A stretch of 17,274 nt of DNA from a virus (lineage: Duplodnaviria; Heunggongvirae; Uroviricota; Caudoviricetes). Made by a program: the position numbers and the translations under genes. Of this stretch, positions 1 through 16,926 are shown in pieces (positions within the stretch are counted from its first letter, which is position 1; every line of letters begins with the position of its first letter). A model generated the notes under the pieces. That model did no database searches and was not told the DNA's origin. It saw nothing but the letters and a program-made list of their open reading frames with translations. Location: IMG/VR virus record IMGVR_UViG_2802429232_000009, one strand, 5' to 3'.

Positions 1-1152
1 CTAATTAGAACAGTCAAACCAATTGCTAATTACAGTTTCAAACTTGTGAGTAACTTGCCACCATAAATAATTTTCTAGGACAAATTGTTTTCCGTGATGG
101 GCAATACTAAGTAAATCAGGATTGTTAAGTGTTTTTTCTATATCCACAGCAATCGTTTCTGGTGTCATCGGCTCTTGCAGGTGATAGCCAGTATCTTTAT
201 CTTTTACAAATTCTATCATTCCACCTCGAGTACTCACCAGTACAGGTTTACCTGCGCTCATAGCTTCTATTGCCACCATACAAAATGGCTCCTGAAATTG
301 AGATGGAATAACAACTAAATCAGCCAAAGAATAATAGCGATGCATTTCCTCAGGAGCGACACCTCCTAACATATGGCAGTGTGAACCTAGTTGTTTTGCT
401 AATTCTCGAATTTTCTGTTGGTAAATTCCTTTTTCCCCCTTACTTTTGCTCGCATAATCCCCTATAACAACCAGTTCTATATCATCACGGGTTCTGATGA
501 GTAGTTCAAACGCCTGTAAAAGTAACATCAATCCTTTTTCAGGAGATATTCTTCCCGCATAAAATACAATCTTCTTTTCAGGGGGTATGTTCAGTTCAGA
601 ACTGTTGATTTTTACATGGTGCTTATCCGTATTATATGGATCTGTTCCATTTGGGACTATAGCGATATCTGCATCAGGAAGAAACCCCTGATAATAGTCT
701 TTTAAATAGTTACTGGGGACGAGCATTTTGACATTATCATCCATTCCTTTTGGCTCATAAGCGTTATGCATATGCATCACTATTTTTGCATGAGGTGAAC
801 GCTCACGAATCTGGCGATATAATTTCATGCTATTATGTACAACGATTACACTGTTATCCGTAATATTGAAATCGTTAGCGATATTCAAAATTCGTTGAGA
901 ATAAGGCAGGGGATCTATACGCGTCAATTTCTGAAATATGCGTTTATAAATTCGACTGAACCCGATGCGATGAATTGAGCATCGTTCACTGACAGTGGTG
1001 ATATCAGAATAACCTTCTTCTTTTATACAAACAATTCTATTCGGTATTCTTGTCATCTTAGCAACCTGATAAATCCAGGTTTCTACAGCAGCTGCGCAAC
1101 GTGGAGGAATGGAAAAAATTGGCGTAACAGTGAAAATTATTTTATCAACCAT
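1..1152 (-). CDS. Glycosyltransferase, GT-B fold, family 4-like (383 aa, complete)
   Basis: ATG at 1152..1150 preceded by an AAAGGA Shine-Dalgarno; stop TAG at 3..1. The C-terminal half carries the GT4-type EX7E region (VVIPSQFQEPFCMVAIEAMSAGKPVLVSTRGGMIEF). Markedly more AT-rich than the tail genes by eye. Specific sugar and acceptor not determinable. Confidence 0.8.
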   Translation of the reverse strand: MVDKIIFTVTPIFSIPPRCAAAVETWIYQVAKMTRIPNRIVCIKEEGYSDITTVSERCSIHRIGFSRIYKRIFQKLTRIDPLPYSQRILNIANDFNITDNSVIVVHNSMKLYRQIRERSPHAKIVMHMHNAYEPKGMDDNVKMLVPSNYLKDYYQGFLPDADIAIVPNGTDPYNTDKHHVKINSSELNIPPEKKIVFYAGRISPEKGLMLLLQAFELLIRTRDDIELVVIGDYASKSKGEKGIYQQKIRELAKQLGSHCHMLGGVAPEEMHRYYSLADLVVIPSQFQEPFCMVAIEAMSAGKPVLVSTRGGMIEFVKDKDTGYHLQEPMTPETIAVDIEKTLNNPDLLSIAHHGKQFVLENYLWWQVTHKFETVISNWFDCSN

Positions 1153-1638
1153 GACGTATTATCCTTTCTATTGTTATTTTGCGTTATTGAATTTTTATAA
1201 GCAAATGAGGAATCAGTGTATATGCATAGTATGTGAATGTTATCCTACTTAAGCCTCTATCTTTATGGTGTGCCAGCGGCAACGTGTTATCTGACTCATT
1301 TTTATTAGTGATAACCTTACTTTTCCAGAGGAGTGAGATAGTAAACACGCTGTTTCCTCGCATCGTCTATGAGGGTATCAAAAGGACAAACTATATTTGA
1401 AGTGATTTATAACGCAATATATTTATGTTTAAAAATCACTTTTTATTCTTCGCGTGAATGTTTTGTTTGGGACAATATTTTTTATAAATATGTTATAGTC
1501 TAATTCTATATAGCCAAGCGGAATAATTCTCCATTTTCGGTCAGACCTTTCGGGGTAAGGCGCAGAAGCCATTTTCTCTGTCTGACTGTGCTTGCACCGG
1601 GGAGGTGTCCGTATAGGCTATTTAGCGTATATAAGGAA

Positions 1639-1655
1639 CCGGGCATTGTGCCCGG
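1639..1655 (-). terminator. Perfect hairpin (CCGGGCA-TTG-TGCCCGG) 6 nt past the last tail-operon stop; candidate operon-end terminator
   Basis: 7-bp perfect stem with 3-nt loop read directly. On the minus-strand RNA it is followed by UUCCUUAUAU, only moderately U-rich, so termination efficiency is uncertain. Confidence 0.4.
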
Positions 1656-1661
1656 TGTGAT

Positions 1662-2117
1662 TTAAGGATGGGATTGCCAGCTACTTACTAAGGCATACAA
1701 GTGATTTGGTGAGTATCGCCAGCTATCTTTTAATTGCAGGAATTCAGCACAAAATTCACTGCAAAACAGGCGATCGCACTGTTCTTTATTGCCGGTGATA
1801 ATTCCTAAGGCTCCGCGCCAGTCGTATTTTTTGCCATCATGTTTATGGAAAAACGTTTCCACGTCCTGAAGGCAGGCCTGGAGCGGCAGCATATCCCACT
1901 TATCTGGCGGTAAAGGCATTATCTTTCCCCGAACGCCGCGATCGCGTAGTGATGCAGAGTAACAAAGGTAACTCTTTTCACCATGCTTAACGGCTAATTC
2001 ACAGTGGGAATAACTACCACGTGTCACTTTACGGGTAAACCAGTCAGCCAGTCGGGCAATACCACGGTGCTCTGTTCGGCCCTTATAACAAGCGAGCCAG
2101 ACAGTGGTTTTACTCAT
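1662..2117 (-). CDS. Hypothetical protein (151 aa), last gene of the tail operon; function unknown
   Basis: ATG at 2117..2115 overlaps the TGA of the upstream Tfa gene (ATGA overlap), implying translational coupling. Contains several Cys/His (WLACYKG, YSHCEL, CSEFCAEF) but no family I can name with confidence. Confidence 0.6.
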   Translation of the reverse strand: MSKTTVWLACYKGRTEHRGIARLADWFTRKVTRGSYSHCELAVKHGEKSYLCYSASLRDRGVRGKIMPLPPDKWDMLPLQACLQDVETFFHKHDGKKYDWRGALGIITGNKEQCDRLFCSEFCAEFLQLKDSWRYSPNHLYALVSSWQSHP

Positions 2118-2821
2118 GGTTGCCAGCCTGTGGAGTAATCGTAGTCGAGCACCGCCTGAATATCGTCCAGTGCTTCCACCGCCGCGATATGGTGCTGAGC
2201 GTTGGCGAATAAGCGCATATCGTGATCCATTGTTACCGATTCAAACTGGGCGGCGATTTCGTTGGTTAACTCGATCAGACCGTTATTTTTAGTTTTCCAC
2301 ATTAAACCTGGTGGAATTTTTTTCTCCGCTCCCATTTTTGTGAGTGAGATCTGTTGAATTCGGCTGTTTGTATCACTGTGGAAGTGATGGTCGTTGATGA
2401 TGATGTAGTTGGTTGTGATGGTATCGCGTTGATTTTTGATTGCAGAGTATTTCGCCTCTTTAGCATCGGTTATAGATGGTTGCCATTTTTCACCATCCCA
2501 ACGTTCAAAAGAACCTGATGGGGCAATGATGGTGACAGTTTCAGGTAATTGACCCAATTCTTGAATAATAAGCTGGCTACCATCAACTTTGTTATAAACA
2601 GTTTGCCCGCGATGATCTTCAATGTGCTCCCATTTTTCATTCACCCAAACAGGAGTAAAACCTGAAACCTTTTCGGGTGGTGAATTTAATGTGCAATGAT
2701 TTGGCAAACCTGTATTAGGTGCAATGTATGCATCAGACTCACCGATATATTCTTGGGTGTCTTGTGAAAAATTATAAACAGTCAGTATTTGAGCTTCATC
2801 GGAAAATGTAAAAGTATTCAT
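2114..2821 (-). CDS. Tail fiber assembly protein / chaperone (Tfa, Mu U / P2 G family), 235 aa
   Basis: Immediately downstream of the tail fiber gene with an ATGA start/stop overlap at 2818..2821. The N-terminal region has the Tfa-type pattern ([17 protein letters not shown] ... [10 protein letters not shown] ... WDGEKWQ); the C-terminal 100 aa are divergent. GAGG Shine-Dalgarno present. Confidence 0.8.
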
Positions 2822-4443
2822 GCTAGCCTCACAATATAATTGAATGCGATATTTTTAACGGTGTTTTCGGTATTGCCGGTATTATTAATGGTTATAGAGT
2901 GATTATGGGCCCCAAGTGGAATTGAATGTGAATGGGTACCAATTGAAAGTTCATGTGTATGGCTACCCAATGCGATAGTATGTGCATGGGTACCAATGGC
3001 TGTAGTATGAGAGTGATCACCTACTGCATCGGTATTAACAAAATCATAACGAGAGTCACCGATAGAATCAGCGGTTAGTGCATTGCCACCGTAATCAGCA
3101 TCACCTTTACATGTTATTTGATGTGAATGGCCACCTGTGCTGGTCGACGATTTACTTCCGTGATTGAACGACGATGTTGTCTTAGAGCCAAGATCAGAGG
3201 CAGATACCGTTTTGTTTCCAAAATCAAAAGATGATGTTGCTTTTGTCCCTAAATCCGTACTAGAAATACTGCCCGTATGGTTGTGCGATTTAACCCCATC
3301 CAGTTCAGTAGATAATATATTACGCCCACTGCTGGTTTTCCCTTTAATTATCCATCCACGCATATCAGGGATGACGCCAGACGGATATGCAATTGCCAGT
3401 TTGGGATATGAGGCTTTATTAAATGTCTGACCTGTCATCAGGGCGTAGCCAGAAGGTACAGAATCAGACGGCCAAGGAATAGGCATCCCTACAGGGCAGC
3501 TTTCCGCAGCACTAGCCTTATCATACGCCGCCTTCACCGCACTCGGCGTAGCCGCCTCCGTCGTACTGTTGCTATCCGTCGCATTACTAAGCTTCACAAT
3601 CCCTTTTTGTGTCAGGGTGCCGTCCGGAATACCCGTAATCTGCCCCCAGGGGTGTGTATGACTACCCGCAGCCTTACCGTTCGCCAGGTCATACGCCGCC
3701 TTCACCGCGCTCGGTGTCGCCGCCTCTGTCGTGCTGGTGCTATTGGTCGCATTATTAAGCTTCACAATCCCTTTTTGCGTCAGCGTACCATCCGGTATAT
3801 CAGTAATCTGACTCCAGGTATGACGATGATTTCGAGCCTCAATCATTGCCGCTTTCACCGCTTTTGGCGTAGCCGCTTTGGTTTCGTCATCACTGTCAGT
3901 GGCGTTACTTAACTGCGTAAAGCCTTTTTGCGATAACGTAGCATCAGGGTGATTAGTCGAACGTTCATGTTCATCCAGTTGCGAATCAACATAATCCCGT
4001 GTTGCCAGCACAATACTGGGATCAACGGTGAGCGTTACCGCTGCCGTATTGGAAACTTCCATAATGAGACGAATGCAAACTTGCTTACCGCTGCCGCCGG
4101 GTAATAGCGGTTTATACGACTCCGGGAATTTACCGATAGCAATGAGTTCACCATCGGTATCAAAAACACCGACTTCACGTACATACCAGCCGCCGATATT
4201 TTCTGGCAGTACAAGTTCCGCAATTAACCAGTTAGGATTATTAGGCGCAACTGTTAATGTATTTAAATCACCGCGCCATACTTCATGGCGTAATTTAGTT
4301 TGGCTGACGGTGGGTTCATAATATTGCCCTCCGCTGTCGCCAACAGCCATTTTTTGTAGATGAAGCTGTTTTTTATCCGCCAGGGCATTGGCAATTTTTG
4401 CCATCCCTCTGTCAGTGAGTAGAGTATAAAACTCATTATCCAT
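2818..4443 (-). CDS. Tail fiber protein (541 aa): P2 gpH / Mu S-like N-terminus, tandem repeats, His-x-His-rich C-terminal tip
   Basis: The N-terminal block ([21 protein letters not shown] ... [29 protein letters not shown] ... ATPKAVKAA) is the conserved tail-fiber N-terminal domain of P2/Mu/lambda-type fibers. Three copies of the TLTQKG-x-VKLSNAT...[13 protein letters not shown] repeat follow. The C-terminus has six HxH motifs (HSH, HSH, HAH, HTH, HSH, HNH). GGAG Shine-Dalgarno; ATG at 4443. Confidence 0.9.
3514..3945 (-). repeat. In-frame tandem direct repeats of about 168 bp (56 codons) inside the tail fiber gene; two well-conserved copies plus one degenerate copy
   Basis: The 20-mer tcatacgccgccttcaccgc occurs at 3521 and again at 3690 (period about 168 bp), with long near-identical tracts between them. 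The third, degenerate copy is around 3846..3945. Confidence 0.8.
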
Positions 4444-4445
4444 AA

Positions 4446-5078
4446 TTACTCCGGGTAAATATATGTAATTTCAAGGCTCCATTGCCCTGCTCCGTAATAG
4501 ATTGATGTGTTTTGCTGTACTTCCCGTATCTGGAAAGGTAAAACCGTCGTCAGTTCACCACCATAAAGCGCACAGCCAATAACAGGAATAGCACTTTGGT
4601 TAATGATCCAGACGATTAATGCTTCCAGTTTTGAACGTGTATTTTTATATTCATGAATGAGTTCTACCAGATTATTGAAAAGGTTTTCATCCATGCCTTT
4701 ATCCACCAGCTCTATATCAACCTTAAAAAAATAAGCCTTTCCCTCATATTCAAACCATTCTGAAATAGTTCCTGGTAGAGAAAGTATTTCCAGTACCCGC
4801 CGTACCGCCCAAATCGTTCCTTTATATTTATGCAGCTCAATGGCTTGCTTAATTAACTCTCGCTTCTCCCGTTCATCAGTGGTAAATAACCAACCTTCCA
4901 GCCCCTGAACGTGAAATTGTTCTGCAAGGGCAGGTAATGCCGAAGCATCAACTAGGTCTACCAGATAAACCATCAACGCCGTCAGATCGAGTTGGGCAAA
5001 ACGCTCGGCGGCGATATTTGCCAGAGTTGAAAAACGCTCATCGCTGGCAAGCGGCGGTGGCGGCAGCAATTTATCCAT
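4446..5078 (-). CDS. Baseplate/tail protein, P2 gpI / Mu gp48-like (about 210 aa)
   Basis: Position between the gpJ-like and tail fiber genes. I prefer the ATG at 5078..5076 (GGAG Shine-Dalgarno 9 nt upstream; overlaps the TAA of the upstream gene) over the TTG at 5093 used in the ORF track. Confidence 0.75.
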
Positions 5079-6186
5079 CGCTGACTCCGGCAATCGTGAC
5101 GTCTATCGCGGTGCATTCCGCCCACTCATGCGCCTGCAAAATACGTTTTGTGGGCATGTTCAGCACAACGTCATAGACGCCATCGACCTGCAATACTTTG
5201 ATTATCTGGTTTGGCACAATGTCCTGTCCCAGATGTGTCTGCCGCTGTTGCGTCCAGAGGCTAATCGCTTTACGCGCCGCAGCCAGCGTTGTCTCCTGAT
5301 CGGCAGTGGTAAACAGTGTGAGCTGCGCACGGATCTCATACGGCACCCTAACGGCGCATTTCGCACTTACTTTGTCGGTCAGCGGACGTTTTTTCTCCTT
5401 ACTAACCTCCAGTTCAATTTGCGCGAGCAGTTCCACGCCCGGCAGACCATTCAGCGTTAGCGGGTAGATCTCCACGCAGCCTTCTGGTAATCCTTCGTCC
5501 GGCCCCAGGACCGCAACGTCAATAATCGACTGGCTTACGGAAAGCGTATGAAAGCGGTAGGCACCATAGCTACCCGCATTACTGAAACTTTCCGGCGCCA
5601 GTTGGATCCGTTGGCGCAGTGCGTCATCACTCTCTTCACCGCAGCCGCCCGTTGAAGCAGTCAGGTTGGTTACGTTGATATCGTAATAACCAATCCTGTC
5701 AACAAGGGCGCTAATTTGTGCAGGCTGCCAGCCATTGCCCGCTTCGCCTGTTGTCAGACTGGTGGCGGGAACGGCGATATGCAAACTTCCCGCCGGAATC
5801 AGAACATCTTCATCGGTAGCAAACATCACGCTGTCAGAGGCGCTGGCTCGTGTTCCTTGGGGGATCAGGATGTTGCTTGTATACGCATTGACTACCGAAA
5901 ACTGCAACGTCGTTTTTGCTGGCTGCGCAGGTAAGCGGTGAACGCCCACCAGTTCCCCTAAATAATCCAGCATTGGCGCGCGGGAATACGCGACCAGGTT
6001 CTGTTTCGCCGCTTCCTGAATGGCGATGCGTACAAGGTTTTCACGATAGGCAAAAAGGTCAATCAGCAACCGCTCGGCCTGTGCCGGGTAGAGCTTTTTG
6101 CCGCTGGCATCTTCGTACTGCGCAATCATCTCGCTGGTAATTTGCGCAGGATCGCGGTCAATAAAATTGGGTTCGGCTATCGCCAT
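5071..6186 (-). CDS. Baseplate wedge protein, P2 gpJ / Mu gp47-like (371 aa)
   Basis: Size and synteny (gpW-like, gpJ-like, gpI-like, fiber). GGAGGTG Shine-Dalgarno; 10-nt overlap with the upstream gpW-like gene. Confidence 0.85.
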   Translation of the reverse strand: MAIAEPNFIDRDPAQITSEMIAQYEDASGKKLYPAQAERLLIDLFAYRENLVRIAIQEAAKQNLVAYSRAPMLDYLGELVGVHRLPAQPAKTTLQFSVVNAYTSNILIPQGTRASASDSVMFATDEDVLIPAGSLHIAVPATSLTTGEAGNGWQPAQISALVDRIGYYDINVTNLTASTGGCGEESDDALRQRIQLAPESFSNAGSYGAYRFHTLSVSQSIIDVAVLGPDEGLPEGCVEIYPLTLNGLPGVELLAQIELEVSKEKKRPLTDKVSAKCAVRVPYEIRAQLTLFTTADQETTLAAARKAISLWTQQRQTHLGQDIVPNQIIKVLQVDGVYDVVLNMPTKRILQAHEWAECTAIDVTIAGVSDG

Positions 6187-6536
6187 AACACCTCCGTTGA
6201 GTTGATTACGCCGTCAGCGGTGCGCCATTGCACACGTAACGTCAGATGTTCCCCGTCGATTACCGGTGTCACCTTCAGCAACCGGCAGCGCGCTTCCCAC
6301 TGGCGAATGGCCTCTACCGACTCCCGTACCACATGCGGGATCGCCCGCTCGATGGGATAATCGATGTAGTGCCACAAGTTGCTACCAAACAGCGGTCTGT
6401 GGGGATCACTGCCGCGCGGTGTGCGCAGAATGATGTGTATTGCCTGGTGAATATCATCCAGTCCGCAGACGTATTCTTCAGGCCGCTGCAAGGCGGGTTG
6501 CCAGTGCAGCGTAGAGGGGCGTGTTTTCGTGTTCAT
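6177..6536 (-). CDS. Baseplate protein, P2 gpW / T4 gp25 / Mu gp46-like (119 aa)
   Basis: Motif LDDIHQAIHIILRTPRGSDPHRPLFGSNLWHYIDYP matches the conserved gpW/gp25 core. Weak Shine-Dalgarno. Preceded by a 98-bp gap containing a terminator. Confidence 0.8.
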   Translation of the reverse strand: MNTKTRPSTLHWQPALQRPEEYVCGLDDIHQAIHIILRTPRGSDPHRPLFGSNLWHYIDYPIERAIPHVVRESVEAIRQWEARCRLLKVTPVIDGEHLTLRVQWRTADGVINSTEVLWR

Positions 6537-6597
6537 GAGGGCATTTTCGCCCTGAACAGGCGGAGGAGATATTAAAGCGGTTTAGAAAACTGGTTGA

Positions 6598-6629
6598 TTA
6601 AAAAGAGAAAACCCGCCATCAGGCGGGTT
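6598..6629 (-). terminator. Intrinsic (rho-independent) terminator for leftward transcription, inside the tail operon
   Basis: Perfect 8-bp GC-rich stem (6610..6617 pairs with 6622..6629) and 4-nt loop, followed on the minus-strand RNA by UUCUCUUUUU. Starts 6 nt after the spike gene stop (6635). Not a terminator on the plus strand. Confidence 0.65.
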
Positions 6630-6634
6630 AAAAG

Positions 6635-7336
6635 TCAGTGTGAATGGTGGTTGGAGTTGCCACCGCTGTCCTGCAATGTGCCGCTGGCCTGCACGTTACC
6701 AATCACGTTGACATTGCCGGTTATCGTGGCGGCATTACCGATGCCTCCACTTCCTGCCATGCCACCCAGCCAGGTCAGTTTTTTCATCACCGTTACGTTG
6801 CCGGTAAAGGTACTGAGCGGTGCGTCTACCGTTACAGTCATCGCTTTAACATCCACCTTACTGGCTTCAATGCTGACATCGGTGGCTTTCACATCAACAG
6901 TGTCGGAAGTCACGGTGACGTGTTGGGCTTTAACCTCAACGTTGGGCGATGTCAGGCGGGTACGGTCGATAACCTCAATCACGATTTTTTCAATGCCGCC
7001 ATTAATCGTAAGCTGGTGGGTGCTGCGGTCATATTCAAACGCTGCGCCATCGGAAAACTGGACATACCTTTTATCGCGCGATGCTACTGGCGCGGTATCT
7101 ACCGTTGAATATACTGCGCCCAGCACTACTCCATCTTCACCGTTATCATCCAGCAGAACTTCCACCTGCTCTCCCATATCCGGTAGCCAGTAGTCTTTAT
7201 TGTCCTGAGAATTGCGCTGCAGCACCGCAAGCCAGTTACTCTTCAGATTGTCACACTCTGGTAGCGTGACCCGCACCCGAACGCTGGTTTCGTCAATATC
7301 ACTGATAATCCCCGTTTGCCGGGTTACTCCTTTCAT
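6635..7336 (-). CDS. Baseplate central spike, P2 gpV / Mu gp45-like (233 aa)
   Basis: Strong AAGGAGG Shine-Dalgarno. N-terminal OB-fold-like region and repetitive beta-rich C-terminal half (VTV/VDV repeats) ending in a His cluster (NSNHHSH). Position after the gpD-like gene. Confidence 0.8.
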   Translation of the reverse strand: MKGVTRQTGIISDIDETSVRVRVTLPECDNLKSNWLAVLQRNSQDNKDYWLPDMGEQVEVLLDDNGEDGVVLGAVYSTVDTAPVASRDKRYVQFSDGAAFEYDRSTHQLTINGGIEKIVIEVIDRTRLTSPNVEVKAQHVTVTSDTVDVKATDVSIEASKVDVKAMTVTVDAPLSTFTGNVTVMKKLTWLGGMAGSGGIGNAATITGNVNVIGNVQASGTLQDSGGNSNHHSH

Positions 7337-7345
7337 ATTGCCTCC

Positions 7346-8386
7346 TTACTGGCTGGTCGCTGGCCCGCGTGAAACGTCGATCTCAGTGGTATAGCCGCTG
7401 CGCACAAAACTGTGAGTAGATTTATCAATCAGCCACTGACCGGAAAGCACACCAAAATCGGTTAGCTCGATTTTATTGCCTGCCGTCAGTTCCGGGCAGC
7501 CCATCATCCTGAGCGTTCCGGTTTGTTGGTATTCGTTGTGGCTGTCGAGCGCGGCGTTGGCCTTTGCTTGTGCCGCGCCAACGTCCGGCGCCCGACTGTT
7601 CAGTTTTAGCGTGTCGGCACTGGTGCCGACTCCACGGGCAGACGGCTTTTGCTGGCTGTCGTGAGTGTAGATAACCAGTTCTTTTTTCTTACTATTTTGA
7701 TGCTGTACGGTGGCGTTTTTGTAGATACGGTTAATGGTATCTTTGAAGGTGAAATGCGAAACGTCTTTGCGGTCGATCTTTTTCACCGGCGCCAGGCAGC
7801 GCAGCGTGGGTAAATGCGAAAAAATCAGCTCTTTGGTGGTCACCTTTAGCGCATAGCCATATTCGCTGGCCAGGCGCTTGATAAATCCAACATCGGTTTC
7901 GCCGTACTGTGTTACCCGGTCAATTGTCAGAGGCTCGATTTTGCCCACCAGCGTCAGGCCGTGAGTTTGCGCGATACGGCTGGCGATGGCTGAAAGCGTT
8001 GTCTCTTCAAAGCCCTGACTATTACGGGTGCGCAGCGCCTGATTGACGGAAGTGGCGATGCCATCAATATTTACCGTGGAAGGTGGTGCTGAAATATCAA
8101 TTTTATCAATGATATATTGACCACAATCGAGCAGTTTTTCCCCCTGATAACCCATGTGCAGCGCCAGCGTATCGCCTTTGCCGGGATACCACTCTTTTAT
8201 CCAGCGTCCATCGGTGTCATCCAGTGTAATCGCGATGGTATCCGACTCGTTTTTAATACTGTCGTGATAACTGATACTGGTGACATAGGGCGTGATGTCA
8301 TAAGTGATATCTTTATGCCCATACCAGAGGGTAAAAATGGGCGCGAGCGTGGCAAAGACGCCGCCAGTTACGCTTATCTCAGCCAT
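7346..8386 (-). CDS. Tail/baseplate hub protein, P2 gpD / Mu P (gp44)-like (346 aa)
   Basis: Size and synteny (gpU-like, gpX-like, gpD-like, gpV-like). GGAG Shine-Dalgarno; start overlaps the end of the gpX-like gene by 13 nt. Confidence 0.8.
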   Translation of the reverse strand: MAEISVTGGVFATLAPIFTLWYGHKDITYDITPYVTSISYHDSIKNESDTIAITLDDTDGRWIKEWYPGKGDTLALHMGYQGEKLLDCGQYIIDKIDISAPPSTVNIDGIATSVNQALRTRNSQGFEETTLSAIASRIAQTHGLTLVGKIEPLTIDRVTQYGETDVGFIKRLASEYGYALKVTTKELIFSHLPTLRCLAPVKKIDRKDVSHFTFKDTINRIYKNATVQHQNSKKKELVIYTHDSQQKPSARGVGTSADTLKLNSRAPDVGAAQAKANAALDSHNEYQQTGTLRMMGCPELTAGNKIELTDFGVLSGQWLIDKSTHSFVRSGYTTEIDVSRGPATSQ

Positions 8387-8583
8387 GGTGGGATCTCCGA
8401 TACGGTTTTGTTGACGGAAATGACTGGAATAATGAGCTGAATACCGGAAGGCAGTACCGGATAAATGGCGACATGTGGATTGGCGGCGATAATGCGTTCG
8501 TAAGCCAGTGCATCACCGTAGTAATGCCATGCCAGATTATCCCAGCGTTCGCCGTCGGTGGTGATATGTTCAAGGTATCGCAT
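8374..8583 (-). CDS. Small tail protein, P2 gpX-like (LysM-like fold), 69 aa
   Basis: GAGGAG Shine-Dalgarno. TAATG stop/start overlap with the upstream gene at 8583..8585. Motif YGD..AYERIIAANPHVAIYPVLPSGIQLIIP resembles tail protein X. Sits between the gpU-like and gpD-like genes as in R-type tailocin loci. Confidence 0.65.
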   Translation of the reverse strand: MRYLEHITTDGERWDNLAWHYYGDALAYERIIAANPHVAIYPVLPSGIQLIIPVISVNKTVSEIPPWLR

Positions 8584-9536
8584 TACCAGCTCCTCGTAAT
8601 GGTCGCGGCAGCAAGCCGAGTCACTGCGGGAATGGTTTGCTGTACCGTTGTACGTGCCTGCTCAACCAACGTTGTGGCTTTATCGAAAGTTGCTTCGGCG
8701 ATGTCGCTGGTAATGTCGTCAAAAAGCGCCTGTGCATGGTCAACCAGTGTCCCGGCGTCTTCGGCACAGTCGCGGATGCCCGGCATGTTACCTAGCAATG
8801 CTTTAATCTGCGCCGACAACGCTTTTGGTAATCCTGCCAGCGTTTGCAGATCCATCGGCTGTTTAAACAGGGTTTCGATGGCATCGATAGTCTTTTTCAA
8901 CGACGTAATTATCTTTTCACACTTTTCTTTTAACGCTTTGGCCTCTTTAATCAGTGCTTTGATCTTTGCCACTGTTTTTTTAATATCTTCAATGGATTGC
9001 GCCAGTTCATCGAGCATCTCTTTGGCTTTGCGCATACCTTCTTCAATGGTGTTCAATATCTGATCCAACCAAGACTCCACCTTGTCCGGAAAATCGCTCG
9101 CCTTTTCGTCAATATTAGGCTCCTGGGTGGTAATCGCCGGGGGCAGGAGTGGGTTTTTCGGATCGCCGGTATACTCCTGGAGCGACATTGTTCCGCTTTG
9201 GGCAATGATATTGCCCCAGGGATCGGTGTGCTGGTGAGTGGCGGTTAACTCTGTAATTACAAACCAGCCGCGATAATCACCGTTGCCAAACACCAGCGCC
9301 ATTGCTTTGTGGGCGAGCATGGCTTCACGCAGTCGATTCAGCTCTGTTGTGGGTTGGCAAAACTGGCTGTGCAGGGAAAATTCCAGCGCCAGCATGTCCA
9401 GCTTATCGCCAATAAACTGCACGCCAGGTTTGCCTTCAATACGGGCATGTGTGGCGTAATCCACGCCCATTGTGCTTTTAAAGCCATCCCAGAATGTGAC
9501 AACTTTAAATTCAATCTCACCTAAAACGGCATACAT
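8583..9536 (-). CDS. Tail protein at the Mu N position with a gpU-like N-terminal domain and a long K/E-rich coiled-coil C-terminal extension (317 aa)
   Basis: ATGA overlap with the tape measure stop at 9536..9538. The first 110 aa or so (EGKPGVQFIGDKLDMLALEFSL ... GNGDYRGWFVITEL) resemble the P2 gpU tail-terminator family; the remainder is predicted alpha-helical. Confidence 0.65.
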   Translation of the reverse strand: MYAVLGEIEFKVVTFWDGFKSTMGVDYATHARIEGKPGVQFIGDKLDMLALEFSLHSQFCQPTTELNRLREAMLAHKAMALVFGNGDYRGWFVITELTATHQHTDPWGNIIAQSGTMSLQEYTGDPKNPLLPPAITTQEPNIDEKASDFPDKVESWLDQILNTIEEGMRKAKEMLDELAQSIEDIKKTVAKIKALIKEAKALKEKCEKIITSLKKTIDAIETLFKQPMDLQTLAGLPKALSAQIKALLGNMPGIRDCAEDAGTLVDHAQALFDDITSDIAEATFDKATTLVEQARTTVQQTIPAVTRLAAATITRSW

Positions 9537-11905
9537 CAGGCATACCCCCGGCGCTGTTGCTGCGCCATTACGTCGTTAATCATTCTTTCCAGTTCGCGTT
9601 TACTCATCGTCAACACGTTCTGAATGTCTTTAGTGGTGTTTTGTCCGTTACTCTGCACGGTAATTTGTGGCGAAAAATTCACCTGGACTTTTCCCAGGGA
9701 ACGGGAGGGTAGCGTCGCCGGTTTGGTTACGGATTTACCAGGTAAAGAGGCCGACGCGGGTTTTGCCGCTGGCGCCGATGACGGCGTAGCCGTTTTGCTG
9801 GATGGCGCGAGTTGTTTGCCCACAGGCGGCGTTAAAAGCGCACCGGCAACGCCTGGAACAACGGTCGCGGGGGAGACTGATGCGGTATTAGTCGTGCCTG
9901 TAACAGCCGCAGCCGATGCTTCTGTGCTGATCCCCATTGTGGCTTTTAGCCAGTCTGGCATGGCGTTTTTGACCTGATCAATAATGCTTTTCAGAGCGGG
10001 GAAAGCATTCATTATGCCGTCGGCCAGACTACCCAGTATATTGCTGCCGAACTCGCTAAAACTCGCAGGCATCTCAACACCAAACCAATTCATCACATCG
10101 GAAAAGGCGCTGTAAAACAGCCCCAGTGGCGACCAGTCGAGAATCAACCGGCTAATACCAGCAATGCCGCCATCAAAGGCCGTGGTGATACGTTGCCAGA
10201 TGGCGGAAAATAACCTGGATATAGGTGCCCAGTTGCGATAAATCAGATAAGCCGCGCCCGCAATCGCAGTGATGACCAGACCAATGGGATTCATCAGTAG
10301 CACCCGACCTAGCGAGAGAACGGTTCGACCAACCAGTTTCAATGCTCCGATCAGGCCACGACCAAGCAGTTGCGTTAGCCATTTTGCGCCGCCACCCAAT
10401 GACTTAACCGCCGATAGCACCTTACTTGCCGTGCCTCCGAGCGCCAGACTTGCCCTCACTTTCAGGAAGATATCGACCAGACGAATAAACGGCGAGGCGA
10501 TGAAGTTCGCGCCCAGCTTTAAAACATTCAGCGCACCGTTAAACAGCCAAATCGCCCCGACGATTTTCGCAATGTTTTGCACCAGCGCCGGATGTTCGCG
10601 TAGCCAGGCGCTGAACTGGCGAATAACCGGCGCAAGGCTTTGCGCCAGCTCGCCAATCGCCGGCATAAGTTGTAAGCCAATGCTGAGCCATAAATCATTT
10701 AACGCCAGTTGTAACGCTTTAGTCTGTTCAATGGGCGAGGCCATTTGCGCAGAAAAGTCAGCGTTAATCAGATTCTTGCTGGTGGCTTGCATGGCAGAGG
10801 CTTTTAGCTGGCGATATTCCTCCATATTCGCCAACATAGGAGCCAGAAATTCCACCGTTTGCGCATCGCCGAACATTTCGCCCAGATTAAATTGCGTCAC
10901 CATCGATTGCAGCGCAGTGCTGCGGGCAGATAAATCTTCAATCTGCATGGTGCGTTTGAAGGTATCGAGGATCGCCGGATTCATCTTCTCAAGCTGCATT
11001 TGCACGATATGAGTCATAGCTTCGCTAACACCCATACCGTTTTGCTGATGCTCAAGCAGAGAACCTTGCAGATCGACCCCCTGGCTGGCGAACCAGCTAT
11101 CGGTTTTTTTCGAAAAGGTGGTTTGCAGAAAATGAGCGAAATTTTCCGTCGCCGCACTGGCGCTGGCACCGTTTTTCATGGCGATCTGCATGGTGGCGGC
11201 CAGTTCAGCCATACCTTCCAGACCCTGAGCGCCGGTTTTACCTGCAAATTTCTCTATCCACTGCGTTTGTTCGGTAATGGCAGGCCCACCGCTTTTGGTA
11301 ACGCTGTACATCATGTTTTGCGCAGCGTGGAAATTTTCTGGGGCAATATTCAGTCGATCATGAGTCGCGAGCGCGGCTTTCGCCCATGTTTCGGCGCTGT
11401 CGCGCGTGGCGGTGGCGGCTTTGGCGATCTCCGGCATATAGCGGTTGAGATCCTGCAAGGACGATATGTTGCCTTCAACTAAGGTCAGAGCGGCGGACTG
11501 TAACGTGGTCTGCTGCTGGTTAAAATCCATACTCCAGTCGCGCAGATTAAGGCTGAGCGTCTCGCGGGTGGCATCACTCATCCCGCCTTTGGTCGCCATA
11601 TTGACCATATTGACCATATTGTCCTGAAACTCATACGGCAACTTCCAGTCGGGGGCTTCAACATTAAATACTTTGCTAAATTGCCCGGCAAATGTTTGGG
11701 TTTTCTCCATCAGATTAGCGCGGCTGCGGCTATTTTCCTCCAGGCGGAGAGCGGAATTGGCAAGCCGCTGCGTTAGTTTGATAACTGTCGCTTGCTGAGT
11801 AGAGAGAGTTAACAATGTTCTGGCGTTGAGTGAGCCGTAACGGGCTATTGCCTGCGTCAACGTCTCATTACGCGCCTGAAGCTGGGTAATAATATCGTTG
11901 GCCAA
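9536..11905 (-). CDS. Tail tape measure protein (789 aa)
   Basis: Largest ORF, directly after the chaperone gene. Long helical N-terminal part, a central hydrophobic glycine-rich segment, and a Pro/Ala/Ser/Thr-rich tract near the C-terminus. The only available start is TTG at 11905 (in-frame TAA 15 nt upstream; AAAGAG Shine-Dalgarno-like motif). Confidence 0.85.
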   Translation of the reverse strand: MANDIITQLQARNETLTQAIARYGSLNARTLLTLSTQQATVIKLTQRLANSALRLEENSRSRANLMEKTQTFAGQFSKVFNVEAPDWKLPYEFQDNMVNMVNMATKGGMSDATRETLSLNLRDWSMDFNQQQTTLQSAALTLVEGNISSLQDLNRYMPEIAKAATATRDSAETWAKAALATHDRLNIAPENFHAAQNMMYSVTKSGGPAITEQTQWIEKFAGKTGAQGLEGMAELAATMQIAMKNGASASAATENFAHFLQTTFSKKTDSWFASQGVDLQGSLLEHQQNGMGVSEAMTHIVQMQLEKMNPAILDTFKRTMQIEDLSARSTALQSMVTQFNLGEMFGDAQTVEFLAPMLANMEEYRQLKASAMQATSKNLINADFSAQMASPIEQTKALQLALNDLWLSIGLQLMPAIGELAQSLAPVIRQFSAWLREHPALVQNIAKIVGAIWLFNGALNVLKLGANFIASPFIRLVDIFLKVRASLALGGTASKVLSAVKSLGGGAKWLTQLLGRGLIGALKLVGRTVLSLGRVLLMNPIGLVITAIAGAAYLIYRNWAPISRLFSAIWQRITTAFDGGIAGISRLILDWSPLGLFYSAFSDVMNWFGVEMPASFSEFGSNILGSLADGIMNAFPALKSIIDQVKNAMPDWLKATMGISTEASAAAVTGTTNTASVSPATVVPGVAGALLTPPVGKQLAPSSKTATPSSAPAAKPASASLPGKSVTKPATLPSRSLGKVQVNFSPQITVQSNGQNTTKDIQNVLTMSKRELERMINDVMAQQQRRGYA
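11596..11621 (-). repeat. Short in-frame tandem repeat (9-bp unit ccatattga, about 2.9 copies) inside the tape measure gene
   Basis: Read directly: gccatattgaccatattgaccatattgtcc. It encodes the duplicated tripeptide in DNMVNMVNMA. Confidence 0.7.
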
Positions 11906-12094
11906 AATTGTTTCTCTTTAAATATTGATAATGGCCCGCTGGTTATTTTTCTAAAAAAAGGGGCAGGGAAGAAATAAACCTGACGGGCTTGGGAAACTCG
12001 CAGACATCAGGTCTGCGAGCCATATTCGATTTTTATTTGGGCGTTGGCTTCATCCAGCCAGTTGCTAAAGTCATCGACGGTAAGGGCGTCTATC

Positions 12095-12412
12095 TCACTG
12101 GGCGGAAAGCGAAACCATCTCGCCAGTAGCGCCATTGCCTGCCATAGCAGGGGAGGATTCTGTAACCACGCTAAGCATAGATTGAAATCGTTTCTGCAAT
12201 GCCTGGTAATCCAGCAAATCCATTTCAGCTAAATCTTCTGGCACCAGTCCGGTCATTGCAGCCATTAGCGGTTCATCCCACTCTTCTGGTTTTTCGCTGA
12301 TCCGGCGGGCGTTGCGCATATCTTTTACTTTCAGGCGACGTAATTGCAGAGTGTTAATTACGTCTCCCGCCGCTGAAGTAAACGGGAACTGTAAGATATA
12401 ATGTTCTTTCAT
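12095..12412 (-). CDS. Tail assembly chaperone (P2 gpE / Mu gp41 / lambda gpG-equivalent position), 105 aa
   Basis: Small acidic ORF between the tube and tape measure genes. AAGGA Shine-Dalgarno. An overlapping alternative-frame ORF extends 3-prime of it (see findings). Confidence 0.7.
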   Translation of the reverse strand: MKEHYILQFPFTSAAGDVINTLQLRRLKVKDMRNARRISEKPEEWDEPLMAAMTGLVPEDLAEMDLLDYQALQKRFQSMLSVVTESSPAMAGNGATGEMVSLSAQ

Positions 12413-12439
12413 TTTGTATCCTTATTTATCATGCGGAAA

Positions 12440-12457
12440 TCGGGGCCGTAGCCCCGA
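12440..12457 (-). terminator. Hairpin between the tube and chaperone genes; possible attenuator or mRNA-stabilising stem-loop
   Basis: 7-bp perfect stem (TCGGGGC/GCCCCGA) with 4-nt loop in the 50-bp gap downstream of the tube stop. Followed on the minus-strand RNA by UUUCC only, so at most a weak terminator. Confidence 0.35.
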
Positions 12458-12462
12458 ATAAC

Positions 12463-12987
12463 TTAGCCACCGATGTTATTGCGATAGGTACTTAATTGAT
12501 CCACGCCGTTAACGCGGAAAATATTCGCCAGGTAATCCAGCTCCAGCAGTGTTTCACCATCGACCACCTGTTTAATATAGGTACAACCAAAGGCGCTGCT
12601 GAATTCCGGGTTTTCATTTTGTTTAAATGTTCCCAGTGGATTCTTTTTAAACATAACAGTCAAATGAGTGACTAACGCTAATTGATTCGCTTTCCCCTGG
12701 GAGTTATAGCAATCAATACTGGAGCGGCACTGTAATGCTACCGCCTGCCACGGGTTTGCCGTTTTACGCATGACGTCCTGATAAAAGGAGTTCCATTTAA
12801 TTTCCCCTTCCAGTTTATCGAAACCTGCCGGGAGCTCGATTTTACCGACCATGCCCAGTGCTTTATGCTCCTGCATAATTAAACTGACATCCGGTAATTT
12901 AATTTCGGTTGCACGACCTAACAGGTTATTACCATCGAGATAAATATTGGCATTGGTAATACGGTTAATTTGAATTTTTCCAGCCAT
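12463..12987 (-). CDS. Tail tube protein (P2 FII / Mu M-like), 174 aa
   Basis: Directly follows the sheath gene with a TAATG stop/start overlap at 12985..12989. GGAGAG Shine-Dalgarno. Size and position typical of contractile-tail tube proteins. Confidence 0.85.
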   Translation of the reverse strand: MAGKIQINRITNANIYLDGNNLLGRATEIKLPDVSLIMQEHKALGMVGKIELPAGFDKLEGEIKWNSFYQDVMRKTANPWQAVALQCRSSIDCYNSQGKANQLALVTHLTVMFKKNPLGTFKQNENPEFSSAFGCTYIKQVVDGETLLELDYLANIFRVNGVDQLSTYRNNIGG

Positions 12988-14411
12988 TAGCTATTGCTCT
13001 CCAGAGAGACTAAATATTCAGAAGTAATTTCAGTTTCAAACGTCAGACGTTCCAGCGGCGGTGGCGGGGTGAATTTATAGCTCAGCAATAAATGCCCGGC
13101 GCTGAGTTCGGTCGGTGAATTTCGCGCCGGATCGTACCAGCACTCAAAGCCAAGCAGTGCGCCGTCGGCAATCAGCTTACGGCCCCAGGTATTTACCGAC
13201 TCGGTCAGGGCATCAATTAGCGCCTGATTAATCGGCATATCGATATACTGCTGGCTGAAATAGCGGATCGACTCGTTAATCACATCGCCCGTGCGGCGAA
13301 CGTTTTCAAAGTTACGCATATGGGTCACGGTAGGCCATGCCGCAGTGCGGTTGCCCCATAAACGCAGACCAGAGCCGTAACTATTGAAAACTGTGGTAAT
13401 GCCGTTTTCGTTGAGCTGATTCACTTCACTTTGCGGGTCATCAACCATTGCGGAAAGTGAACGTTCGATACCGATAATGCCCTGAATTTCCTGGTTTGAG
13501 TTACTCCACCAGAAACCTTTCTCCAGGTCTACTTTGGCACGCAGTCCGGCAGCGCGTGAAGAGAGCGGTTCGAGAACTTCCTGGTTGGTTGAGCCGTCAT
13601 AAACTTTGACGTGCGGATAGCATAAACGCGCACGGTCAGAACTGGTGTTGAAGTTGATTGCGCCTTTCGAGCCGCGACCAGCCAGCACCTGCTGGAATGT
13701 AGTACCGATTGGGGCGTCAATGTAGGCGATAGCACCGAGTTTGTCCGCCTGAGCAATCAGCTCTGTGGTGACCGATTTTTGCGTACAGAAAACCGGAGCA
13801 AGCAGGATTTTGGCGTAGAAACCATACAGATTATAGGTGTCCTGTAGCAGTTTCATCCCCGTGCGATCGCCTGCGGTATTAACGGCGCCAATAATATCGG
13901 CTGCGGTAACTTTTGTTGGATCGGCCCATGAGTAATAGGCGCAAACTTTCGCTCCGGCAGGGATCTCAGTTTCTGCACGAGTGATTATTCCTGTTTGTTC
14001 ATCAACATGAAACGCTGTGCTGCTATACGTGGTGGCTGATGTTGAAGAGGGTTTCAGGACAACATTACGCACCGCACTATGAGCCAGTTTCGCCTGGTTG
14101 TTGGAATCAAAAGTGATACTCTCATTGCTGATGCTGGAGCCATGTTTTACCGGGTCCAGTACGTTAATCACCACCACCGTACCAGCGCCGTGGTCGTAAA
14201 TCGCCTTCAGCGCCTGCGGGATCGTAAAGTTAGCCTGAGTCGAGCCAAACTGCGCGGCATCGCTTTCAGAAAGGCACAATGTTGGTTTGTTTACCGGACC
14301 GCATGGTGCACTACCGATTAAAGCGATTACAGCGGATTTTACCGCTTTAACCGGGCGCGGACCGGTTTCAATTTCAATGGTTTCGACACCGTGCAGGTAA
14401 TTAGCTGCCAT
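12987..14411 (-). CDS. Tail sheath protein (Mu L / P2 FI-like), about 474 aa
   Basis: Large ORF immediately upstream of the tube gene. I prefer the ATG at 14411..14409 (GGAGAGG Shine-Dalgarno 8 nt upstream; overlaps the TAA of the preceding ORF) over the TTG at 14417 in the ORF track. Confidence 0.9.
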   Translation of the reverse strand: MAANYLHGVETIEIETGPRPVKAVKSAVIALIGSAPCGPVNKPTLCLSESDAAQFGSTQANFTIPQALKAIYDHGAGTVVVINVLDPVKHGSSISNESITFDSNNQAKLAHSAVRNVVLKPSSTSATTYSSTAFHVDEQTGIITRAETEIPAGAKVCAYYSWADPTKVTAADIIGAVNTAGDRTGMKLLQDTYNLYGFYAKILLAPVFCTQKSVTTELIAQADKLGAIAYIDAPIGTTFQQVLAGRGSKGAINFNTSSDRARLCYPHVKVYDGSTNQEVLEPLSSRAAGLRAKVDLEKGFWWSNSNQEIQGIIGIERSLSAMVDDPQSEVNQLNENGITTVFNSYGSGLRLWGNRTAAWPTVTHMRNFENVRRTGDVINESIRYFSQQYIDMPINQALIDALTESVNTWGRKLIADGALLGFECWYDPARNSPTELSAGHLLLSYKFTPPPPLERLTFETEITSEYLVSLESNS

Positions 14412-14598
14412 GTACAATTTCCTCTCCGGTATTTTGTTCTTCCTGAGTGATGACGGGAGTCAGATGATTGCGGGCAATCATGGTCATGACCCACTCGTTG
14501 TCTTCTGGCAGATCAATTTCACTGTTCGGCCACAATAAGATTTCTTGTCCGTCGGCAAGGGTGACGCCGCTTGCCGGGCCGTTGTAGATATATTTCAT
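14401..14598 (-). CDS. Small phage protein (65 aa), Mu gp38-like position; probable tail completion / neck-proximal protein
   Basis: ATGA overlap with the upstream ORF at 14595..14598. GAGGAA Shine-Dalgarno. Acidic. Position directly before the sheath gene. Confidence 0.55.
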   Translation of the reverse strand: MKYIYNGPASGVTLADGQEILLWPNSEIDLPEDNEWVMTMIARNHLTPVITQEEQNTGEEIVHGS

Positions 14599-15050
14599 TC
14601 AGTTTCCTCGTAATTAACTTCAGTAAGCAGGGTAAGGTCCGCGCTTTCCCGTTTCGCGATAAACAGCGAGCTGGTCGCCATTTCCAGGATGTAGCGGCAG
14701 AAACCACCGCTCTCGCCTGCATTGATTTCTTTTTCAAGCCAAAGAAGACGCTCGCAATCAGGAAGCTGGATCCCTCCCAGTGCGCTGCGTATGCGATCCA
14801 GTGCGTTTAACGCGTCACAATTTTTGCCAACAATAACGGTGGCAGTTAAGCGGAGCGTTTGCTGTTGCACGAGAGCATCACTGCTTTCAGGCATGGCAAA
14901 TAGAGAACCGCTATAATTAATAATTACTGTAACTTGCTGTGTCTGTGGAATATATTTCTGGGCATCGACCGATGAAATAAATACGTCCATTTCGGGATTC
15001 TGTTCACGTAATCTGGTCACAACAGAATTCATTACAGATAAAATTTCCAT
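14595..15050 (-). CDS. Phage protein (151 aa), Mu gp37-like; probable tail completion / sheath-initiator protein
   Basis: AAGGA Shine-Dalgarno. Position between the lysis cassette and the sheath gene, where Mu-like phages encode tail-completion proteins. Family assignment from memory only. Confidence 0.55.
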   Translation of the reverse strand: MEILSVMNSVVTRLREQNPEMDVFISSVDAQKYIPQTQQVTVIINYSGSLFAMPESSDALVQQQTLRLTATVIVGKNCDALNALDRIRSALGGIQLPDCERLLWLEKEINAGESGGFCRYILEMATSSLFIAKRESADLTLLTEVNYEETE

Positions 15051-15167
15051 ATAGGGTGTTCCTTAATTATTGCTGATTCGTTAACGCTTACTCCGTTATC
15101 GTTGAAATGTATTCTGACGTAGTGAAGGTGAAGGATCTTTTAATCTGCTTTAGAGAAAAAATTGAAT

Positions 15168-15482: not shown

Positions 15483-15494
15483 CGGCTCCTCTGT

Positions 15495-16390: not shown

Positions 16391-16926
16391 ACGATATCTC
16401 CTGATAAGTGAGCGTTTAGTGTCGCCAGATCCCTCCAGTGAAGAATGAAAAAAGCTTTAATAAATAACTTTAAAAAATAGATCCTCTATAAATGAACATG
16501 CTCGCTAATAAATCCACCCATTAATAAAAGAGCAAAAGGTGACCTGGCGAATAAGCGCGTCATTATGCAGGGAAAAGAGGATGGTGGATCGTAGGAGTAG
16601 TCAGTAGTTATTTGATTTTTAAAGTTTGTTTAAGAAAGTTAGCGACTGTGAGGGAAACGATCTTTTTATACTACAGGTAAAATAATACTGTATGTGTATA
16701 CAGTATCGTGTAAAATGATACTCCAGTTGACAAGAAACGTAACGCAAACAATATATTTATTTTGTGAATTTATGGTGTTCATTAATATTAAAAATTTATA
16801 TTTTTGGTGATTGTTTATTTGTTTGTTGAATGTATTGAGTAGCAGTAATGACAACTGCTTAGCGTATATCCGTGGTTTTACACGCATCGGGTCTTATACA
16901 GGATGCAAGATATATGGAGATGAAAA
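16391..16926. promoter_or_regulatory. Divergent AT-rich control region between the lysis/tail operon (leftward) and the Mor-family activator gene (rightward)
   Basis: 536 bp with no ORF of convincing coding character on either strand. Contains the LexA box below, a TAAAAT -10-like hexamer at 16711..16716, a TTGACA at 16727..16732, and three TAATAAA heptamers at about 16459..16528. Confidence 0.6.
16686..16705. promoter_or_regulatory. LexA (SOS) box: TACTGTATGTGTATACAGTA
   Basis: Perfect CTGT-N8-ACAG palindrome with the conserved flanking TA dinucleotides. Differs from the enterobacterial consensus TACTGTATATATATACAGTA only at two central spacer positions. A -10-like TAAAAT lies 5 bp to its right, so the box overlaps the -35/spacer of a candidate rightward promoter. 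Confidence 0.6.

Follow-up and report, generated by a model that had tools for sequence, protein, structure and literature searches.

The WaaK family (PRK15484) comprises UDP-N-acetylglucosamine (UDP-GlcNAc):(glucosyl)lipopolysaccharide alpha-1,2-N-acetylglucosaminyltransferases. In this study, a gene of this family was analyzed in a 17,274-nt stretch of DNA (IMG/VR record IMGVR_UViG_2802429232_000009; hereafter the window), which corresponds, in reverse complement, to part of contig PTRD01000020.1 (GCA_002965005.1). The gene encodes a glycosyltransferase (GT) and, together with an AT-rich spacer, lies directly downstream of a cluster of BcepMu-like tail and lysis genes. With moderate confidence, it is read here as moron-type cargo that probably modifies the lipopolysaccharide (LPS) core and is located at the end of this cluster.

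The GT is like WaaK (RfaK) of Salmonella enterica and of the R2 core, and like WaaD of the R3 core, in its full-length PRK15484 match, its GT4 fold family, its EX7E motif and its low GC content. Unlike WaaK, it lies outside the waaQ operon and not beside waaL: rather than standing at the end of that operon and convergent on waaL, it has a phage-tail gene and yjbD as neighbors, and it stands alone with a predicted promoter and a predicted terminator. A moron is said to have been described by Juhala and colleagues, and by Hendrix and colleagues in 2000, as an independent promoter-gene-terminator unit of deviant composition between phage genes, and the tail-fiber end of an element is the classic moron position. 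The locus resembles morons as a cassette of deviant composition with a candidate promoter and a hairpin terminator, situated in a 13-nt gap site at the tail-fiber end; it differs from them in that it resides in a tail and lysis cluster without head genes, the flank carrying RlaP may be chromosomal, and the expression signals are predicted. Because a promoter and a terminator of its own (both predicted), deviant composition and insertion between adjacent genes are found together, the cassette corresponds to the classic description of a moron.

The GtrABC and Oac systems (P22, SfV, Sf6) act in the periplasm, where they modify the O-antigen by acetylation or by way of bactoprenol-linked sugars, and their genes lie beside the phage integrase and att site. 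The window gene is like them in being a mobile-element-linked gene that would alter the LPS surface and receptor availability. Unlike them, it encodes a cytoplasmic Leloir-type GT4 enzyme with a predicted core target and lies at the tail-fiber end, and no Gtr-type or acyltransferase domains were detected in the AT-rich segment with Pfam. The adjacent cluster is like BcepMu-like phages and R-type tailocins in its sheath, Mor, holin, SLT transglycosylase, and P2-type baseplate and fiber; unlike BcepMu-like phages, it is without head, replication, transposase and integrase genes. The cassette belongs to known kinds, that is, the WaaK family on the one hand and phage morons and LPS-modifying cargo on the other, and the finding alone is an ordinary case of a phage-derived cluster that carries AT-rich cargo at its end.

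Identity of the Glycosyltransferase

The GT gene (allele alpha) occupies positions 1..1152 on the minus strand, with the window beginning exactly at its stop codon, and it encodes a protein of 383 amino acid residues (aa). These coordinates, and those of the 509-bp gap to the open reading frame (ORF) at 1662..2117, were as given in the preliminary description of this DNA. The protein scored 675.6 bits against the NCBIfam model PRK15484 (lipopolysaccharide N-acetylglucosaminyltransferase; curated cutoff 618), and residues 1-380 were aligned to positions 1-380 of the 380 model positions. The C-terminal domain matched the Pfam family Glycos_transf_1 (GT4 retaining transferases; E = 2e-38), which bears out the earlier naming of the product as a GT4 glycosyltransferase; a match to the Pfam family GT4-conflict was partial and far weaker than this generic GT4 match. 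The EX7E motif is present as E288-x7-E296 (EPFCMVAIE). Neither the GT nor the 151-aa protein of the adjacent tail-cluster gene was matched by the PADLOC defense-system models.

The amino acid identity of the GT was 70% to Salmonella WaaK, 66% to WaaD of the Escherichia coli R3 core and 54% to R2 WaaK. A cell-surface role, as had been proposed, is indicated by the full-length match to an LPS N-acetylglucosaminyltransferase family, and the protein is predicted to be an accessory enzyme that adds N-acetylglucosamine (GlcNAc) to the LPS core. Judging from the 70% identity to Salmonella WaaK and from the family description, GlcNAc would be transferred from UDP-GlcNAc to an outer-core glucose. WaaK has been described to add a terminal alpha-1,2 GlcNAc onto outer-core glucose and to be needed for recognition by the O-antigen ligase WaaL in R2 and Salmonella cores; in the same study, the LPS cores of E. 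ruysiae and E. albertii were not typable (PMC13293308). The exact GT protein was found on 7 contigs and is listed as "unclassified Escherichia"; the 90%-identity cluster to which it belongs consists chiefly of sequences from E. ruysiae and cryptic-clade Escherichia.

When the gene was compared with three diverged copies, the ratio of non-synonymous to synonymous substitution rates (dN/dS) was 0.14-0.17, which indicates that it has been maintained by purifying selection. It is very improbable that the gene is a decaying relic without current function. Although remnants abound in the surroundings (fiber pseudogenes, stubs of RlaP and Mor, and a GT fragment), the ORF is complete, its EX7E motif is intact and its dN/dS is low, its promoter and ribosome-binding site (RBS) are conserved, and the GT is intact in all the alpha and beta contigs listed.

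Base Composition of the Segment

The GC content of positions 1-1661 was 0.375, compared with 0.490 in positions 1662-17274. Low values were obtained for both the GT coding sequence (1-1152, minus strand; GC 0.377, and 0.305 at third codon positions, GC3) and the spacer (1153-1661; 0.371). The genes for gpJ, W, V, D, the tape measure and the sheath had a GC of 0.51-0.575 and a GC3 of 0.53-0.68, and the host genes at the left (yjbD, rluF, pepE, yjbB and metH) had a GC of 0.50-0.555. Across 27 kb, consisting of the window and 10 kb of left flank, the mean GC of sliding 1661-bp intervals was 0.497, with a standard deviation of 0.044. The minimum (0.356) fell on the AT-rich segment, ∼3 standard deviations under the mean; the next-lowest interval wholly outside the segment, and not overlapping it, had a GC of 0.457, and the interval at 1401, which overlaps the spacer in part, had 0.427. 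The AT-rich break is real and well beyond local GC variation.

The GT and spacer had been called strongly AT-rich by eye, and the windowed analysis confirmed this, since they form the lowest-GC 1.66 kb of the 27 kb. The accompanying view that the tail genes are GC-balanced holds for the core tail genes, which are higher in GC, but not as a simple step, because the cluster has lower-GC patches of its own: the fiber tip and assembly gene (2114-3300, ∼0.42), gpI (0.44), 15051-15482 (0.34-0.41) and 16391-16926 (0.336). The tail cluster is a compositional mosaic. The AT-rich unit extends ∼197 bp beyond the left edge of the window, which cuts the unit.

Organization of the Cassette

A second allele of the GT, beta, shows 84% amino acid identity to alpha and is preceded by the same 284-nt upstream block. 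This block (1153..1436, minus strand), which starts 284 nt before the ATG, was delimited by BLAST of L012 9717-10000 against the E. albertii and E. fergusonii loci, with 77-80% identity and colinearity with the gene. In an alignment of four alpha and beta sequences covering window positions 1140-1445, which span the leader, the promoter and the first codons, the mean column identity was 86% and long invariant blocks were observed.

A candidate sigma-70 promoter of the GT, TTGCGT-16-TATAGT, lies within this block (1417-1390, minus strand). Both hexamers are invariant in the copies of the window, arrangement B (L033), E. albertii and E. fergusonii, which differ by 14-23% elsewhere, and the motif occurs exactly once in the window, with 0 occurrences expected in shuffled sequences. 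The promoter that had been expected somewhere in the spacer may well be this candidate, given its invariance in four diverged copies.

The candidate promoter is followed by a conserved 5′ leader of ∼230 nt (1153..1389, minus strand; four-sequence alignment), with the RBS AAGGA located 9 nt ahead of the ATG. An Rfam scan of positions 1-2300 at E up to 1 matched no family, the leader folded no better than shuffled sequence (z = -0.08), and covariation in the four sequences gave no convincing compensatory support for a structure. No RfaH ops/JUMPStart element was found in the spacer; its sole exact match is inside the tube gene. The 5′ GUCCUUU of the leader could pair with the RBS of the GT, and all of these positions are invariant across the four copies. 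A leader ORF (1184..1363, minus strand) remains open in each of the four alpha and beta copies (43-59 aa) and has a good RBS ahead of an internal in-frame ATG/GTG start. It was rejected as a gene, as its C-terminus and length vary and the substitutions appear by eye to be mostly non-synonymous.

The distal part of the spacer (1437..1637, GC 0.396) is specific to alpha. It is shared at 92% with arrangement B but has no counterpart in the beta cassettes or in E. coli; no donor match for the spacer was obtained in the phage and plasmid collections searched. At the right, the cassette is bracketed by the hairpin ACCGGGC-N5-GCCCGGT (1638..1656; -14.2 kcal/mol, z = -3.9 on the sense strand), which also forms a terminator-like end of the tail operon. 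Homology to E. coli begins at window position 1639. At the left, a terminator-like partner hairpin is located 56 nt beyond the GT stop codon (window -55 to -77; L012 11208-11230); its stem comprises 9 bp, 6 of them G-C pairs, and a T-rich tail follows (-22.8 kcal/mol, z = -5.5). At the level of sequence, this partner hairpin qualifies as the GT's own predicted factor-independent terminator.

In the preliminary description, the GT was placed in a surface-polysaccharide locus as the first gene of a unit running leftward. The corresponding explanation, namely that it opens an acquired multi-gene surface-polysaccharide (LPS or capsule) operon, retains scarcely any probability. An AT-rich GT4 gene at the window edge speaks for it, but the flank speaks against it and has already refuted it. 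The GT is followed by the partner hairpin and then by yjbD (DUF3811; same strand, 240 nt off), a core gene, and by rluF, ccdBA, pepE, yjbB, metH and iclR; no further polysaccharide genes were found left of the GT in the recovered flank DNA. Since the flank is without a polysaccharide operon and a hairpin lies 56 nt after the stop codon, the GT is a solitary unit, that is, a single-gene cassette. Nor does the alpha allele belong to a conserved LPS operon that is also present where the tail cluster is missing. In the genome of the window, the ccdAB toxin-antitoxin pair lies between rluF and pepE (L012 12627-13237), and a sorbose operon is found there in E. coli. Neither a tRNA/tmRNA integration site nor an integrase was found in the window.

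Insertion Site in Related Genomes

In E. coli, the same tail cluster (∼91% nucleotide identity) is located between lysC and yjbD. The place of the GT segment is taken there by RlaP, a nucleotidyltransferase, and slipin (Band_7), at L014 18086-20010; neither gave a PADLOC match. The E. coli homology breaks at window 1638/1639 and again 43 nt before yjbD, and the segment missing from E. coli comprises 1,835 bp, from window 1638 leftward to ∼-196. Between its two hairpins, the cassette measures ∼1.7 kb. As the segment is absent from E. coli strains with the same tail cluster at the same locus, the horizontal acquisition proposed earlier is supported. Only 13 nt separate the 151-aa gene from the convergent RlaP gene in E. 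coli, and the two have one hairpin in common, GCCGGGC-N5-GCCCGGC.

A second arrangement (B, L033) was found to consist of the tail genes, the 151-aa gene, a hairpin, the spacer, the GT, a hairpin, RlaP and yjbD, and the stretch running from its assembly gene to 88 nt beyond the GT aligns colinearly with the window at 92%. By this comparison, the arrangement of the window (A) is B minus RlaP, with ∼10 nt of the RlaP end left. In E. fergusonii, a different 242-aa ORF occupies the space between the same two hairpins, and the site after the last tail gene is therefore a cassette slot of which the GT is one occupant.

The hairpin, with the general form (A/G)CCGGGC-N5-GCCCGG(C/T), occurs once in E. 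coli (L044 7773) and twice where it brackets the GT (A and B; L033 9493 and 11206) or the 242-aa ORF of E. fergusonii (L022 5135 and 6093). In a tail-less E. fergusonii locus (L021), a zeta-toxin gene lies ahead of a single hairpin copy beside RlaP. From its distribution, the hairpin seems to behave like a recurrent recombination site for cargo exchange. In E. fergusonii L022 (8827-11418), a partial duplicate of rluF (177 aa) and one of yjbD (74 aa) border the beta GT cassette, which suggests that the cassette may have been inserted by recombination with a donor fragment already carrying GT-yjbD-rluF. Contig L017 was set aside as an example of a GT without a tail cluster, being a short contig with the duplicated rluF/yjbD arrangement of the E. 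fergusonii type.

Linkage With the Tail Cluster

For alpha-type proteins, the genomic places listed among ∼55 contigs were inspected. At every one of them, tail genes were found directly upstream of the GT, which is co-directional with the tail operon and lies on the tail side of RlaP. In E. albertii (L025 and L028, 8952-9397), a truncated alpha-type GT directly follows the fiber-assembly gene and is itself followed by an RlaP stub. This fragment consists of the last 396 nt of the gene and ∼50 nt downstream, and it is 81-82% identical to alpha and 73% identical to the strain's own full-length GT 600 bp further on. In tail-less E. albertii (L026, 9443-9738), ∼190 nt of the Mor 3′ end and ∼110 nt of mid-RlaP remain and beta is kept. 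These remnants indicate that the E. albertii cluster was lost by a single deletion, and that the locus does not represent an ancestral tail-free state.

Apart from its orthologs, the nearest relatives of the window GT are orphans as well. The orphan genes outside waa clusters, which comprise beta, a copy in S. arizonae and copies in further mobile elements, show 68-84% amino acid identity to the window GT. Salmonella Mu-like prophages at three different chromosomal sites (L029, L030 and L031, ∼9600-13300) carry a GT with 70% identity; it has a DUF4376 assembly gene on one side and a 73-76-aa HTH_7 stub on the other, and Com and a DNA methylase are encoded nearby. The stub looks like a truncated remnant of the Gin invertase, and in Mu itself this slot is the position of the alternate S′U′ fiber genes. 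P1-like plasmids of 93-124 kb carry the GT in E. coli, E. albertii and E. fergusonii, as do IncFII-replicon phage-plasmids with a myovirus tail. On the plasmids, the GT is paired with a hexapeptide (DapH/GlmU-like) acetyltransferase and is convergent on the tail-fiber assembly gene (L015 7995-9681, L002 408-2094 and L019 3567-5260; 15 plasmids listed). A macro-domain protein is encoded between the plasmid fiber gene and its assembly gene. The orphans of the Mu-like, P1-like and IncFII elements are convergent on the fiber-assembly gene, whereas the window GT is co-directional with the tail operon, and it has no partner gene such as the acetyltransferase of the plasmids. WabB of pO157 was rejected as the closest plasmid homolog, as the plasmid matches were P1-like phage-plasmids. 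In a full-text literature search of incomplete coverage, no paper on orphan waaK genes in prophages or phage-plasmids was found.

Several observations weigh against reading the GT as moron-type cargo of the tail cluster. A moron in the strict sense is an insert between two phage genes, and RlaP, which forms one flank here, lies at the edge of the element or outside it. The candidate promoter agrees with the consensus at only 3/6 and 5/6 positions and was not listed by a stricter consensus scan, and a low GC content is typical of the whole WaaK gene family and therefore dates nothing. In E. albertii and E. fergusonii, beta immediately precedes yjbD whether or not the tail cluster is present, and an orphan copy in S. 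arizonae (75% identity) lies beside umuDC with no tail genes nearby. Neither alpha nor beta was present in any of the 196 E. coli genomes with the cluster end, and among 149 E. coli carriers the fiber gene was full length in ∼100, none of which carries either allele. In arrangements A and B, the first 319 fiber residues are 92.6% identical, the tips are unrelated and the GT is the same. A neighbor-joining tree, computed without bootstrap support values, grouped the Escherichia alpha and beta proteins with the S. arizonae copy and the phage-plasmid GTs, as a sister group to Salmonella WaaK and the Mu-like prophage GT; the clade of R3 WaaD was separate from these.

Neither strict co-occurrence with a functional tail cluster nor co-variation with fiber specificity was found. 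Intact clusters without a GT, beta without tail genes, and two unrelated tips beside the same GT together show that the linkage is physical and lineage-specific, that it is not required, and that it does not track fiber specificity. In one E. coli carrier that was checked, an intact fiber gene, the assembly protein and the 151-aa gene are followed by RlaP, slipin and yjbD. In roughly one third of the E. coli carriers, the fiber module is damaged, by internal deletion or truncation of the fiber, a gpI frameshift or IS1 in the assembly gene (L014 21513-22760, L041 5041-6979, L042 3976-5178 and L043 5082-6320), and the rest look intact. The idea that clusters without a GT have broken fibers, which came from four sampled E. 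coli genomes, was rejected in view of the ∼100 full-length fiber genes.

The GT could alternatively be a coincidental neighbor, that is, a chromosomal islet in a lysC-yjbD hotspot that serves host LPS variation (an O-antigen ligation site, or serum or bile resistance) and is unrelated to tails. We regard this as possible, although rather unlikely. The cargo of the lysC-yjbD interval differs by lineage (slipin and RlaP, the zeta toxin, the 242-aa ORF or the GT), and a purely host-related function would agree with the position of beta next to yjbD irrespective of the tail cluster, with the GT-less E. coli clusters, with the S. arizonae orphan, and with the requirement of WaaK for WaaL recognition in R2 and Salmonella cores (PMC13293308). 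The islet explanation is opposed by the alpha allele, which is found only directly after the tail cluster, in two arrangements and as the E. albertii relic; by the Mor and RlaP remnants, which mark the "empty" E. albertii locus as a deletion; and by the orphan GTs that abut tail-fiber assembly genes on mobile elements of three further kinds.

A closer functional tie would be dedicated self-immunity, in which the GT caps the outer-core receptor of the element's own tailocin fiber and spares the producer and its kin, like a bacteriocin immunity gene. P1 and Mu attach through their fibers to outer-core glucose, and LPS determines whether a cell resists R-type pyocins. The fiber tip beside the GT (aa 313-541) is 57.6% identical to the fiber of a GT-carrying P1-like plasmid and 47% identical to that of a GT-carrying Salmonella Mu-like prophage. 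The GT is directly downstream of the fiber module and co-directional with it in all alpha contexts, and the hairpin in between is without a clean U-tract, so that some read-through from the tail operon may occur. Against self-immunity stand the ∼100 E. coli genomes with intact fiber modules that do without the GT, the unrelated fiber tip of arrangement B, and E. albertii, in which alpha has decayed and the fiber is kept. Dedicated self-immunity is thus considered decidedly unlikely.

A broader proposal, tentative and somewhat doubtful, is that orphan WaaK-family GTs are a mobile receptor-masking module that travels with contractile-tail fiber modules and, by capping the outer-core glucose to which these fibers attach, would protect its carrier against its own particles and superinfecting relatives. 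Such masking would be a core-level, cytoplasmic counterpart of O-antigen seroconversion. The location of a core-capping GT beside P1/Mu-like fibers would fit receptor-masking or superinfection-exclusion cargo, and is suggestive only.

The Neighboring Tail Cluster

The tail operon (window 1662-17274; E. coli L014 20024-35709) is a headless BcepMu-like cluster in the lysC-yjbD interval. It contains genes for the Mor activator, a holin, an SLT transglycosylase, a membrane protein, a Gp37-family protein, the sheath, the tube, the tape measure, the baseplate, the fiber, a DUF4376 assembly protein and the 151-aa protein. Between lysC and yjbD, genes for a head, for replication, or for a transposase or integrase were not found. 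The sheath shows 71-74% amino acid identity to those of BcepMu, phiE255 and Escherichia phage PhiKM. The cluster end was present in 196 of the 5,426 complete E. coli genomes. A full-text literature search of incomplete coverage returned no paper on a lysC-yjbD tailocin or on the GT locus.

The last gene of the cluster, and the right neighbor of the cassette, encodes the 151-aa protein (1662..2117, minus strand; phage-associated family phrog_1128, E = 2.6e-56) and shows 91% nucleotide identity to the E. coli cluster. The protein had no Pfam or NCBIfam match, and given this, the phrog_1128 label, an "enoyl-CoA hydratase/carnithine racemase-like" moron, is doubtful. The gene is missing from E. 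albertii clusters that have an assembly gene of the Caudo_TAP type. The tail-fiber module (2114..4443, minus strand; Pfam) comprises a fiber of 541 aa (2818-4443), with matches to Phage_tail_fib, Phage_fiber_2 and Collar, and an assembly protein of 235 aa (2114-2821), with matches to DUF4376 and Caudo_TAP. Within the fiber gene, a 130-bp direct repeat (3521-3650 and 3689-3818, 86% identity) corresponds to the Phage_fiber_2 repeats. At the other end of the cluster, the low-GC interval 16391-16926 separates the holin gene from the divergent Mor gene and presumably serves to regulate the cluster. A 73-aa ORF within this interval (16666..16887, minus strand, GC 0.284) had no Pfam or PHROG match.

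Proposed Mechanism and Significance

Under the preferred reading as moron-type cargo, the cassette would consist, in order, of the 200-nt distal spacer, the sigma-70-type promoter, the ∼230-nt leader, the 383-aa GT and the hairpin terminator. The single hairpin of the slot would have been duplicated around the insert, and later loss of RlaP and slipin would have brought the cassette next to yjbD. At the cytoplasmic face of the membrane, the GT would use UDP-GlcNAc to place GlcNAc on outer-core glucose, like WaaK of Salmonella and R2. It would act on top of the resident waa locus, and a capped or branched outer core would be displayed. The altered outer core would constitute a changed receptor or ligation site, which could shift how sensitive the cell is to phages and contractile-tail particles that recognize the LPS core; O-antigen attachment might also be affected. 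An effect of the GT on sensitivity to tail particles, as had been suggested before, is plausible in this light.

The locus provides a natural series, with the cluster and alpha, the cluster and beta, the GT without the cluster, and the cluster without the GT, and its interest would rise if the family-wide association with fiber modules proves functional. LPS-core sugars are receptors for many contractile-tail phages and tailocins as well as the site of O-antigen attachment. Current core typing schemes read the waa locus only. A portable core-GlcNAc cassette could change who kills or infects the cell while the waa locus stays untouched, which makes it relevant to the prediction of phage and tailocin host range and to LPS core typing.

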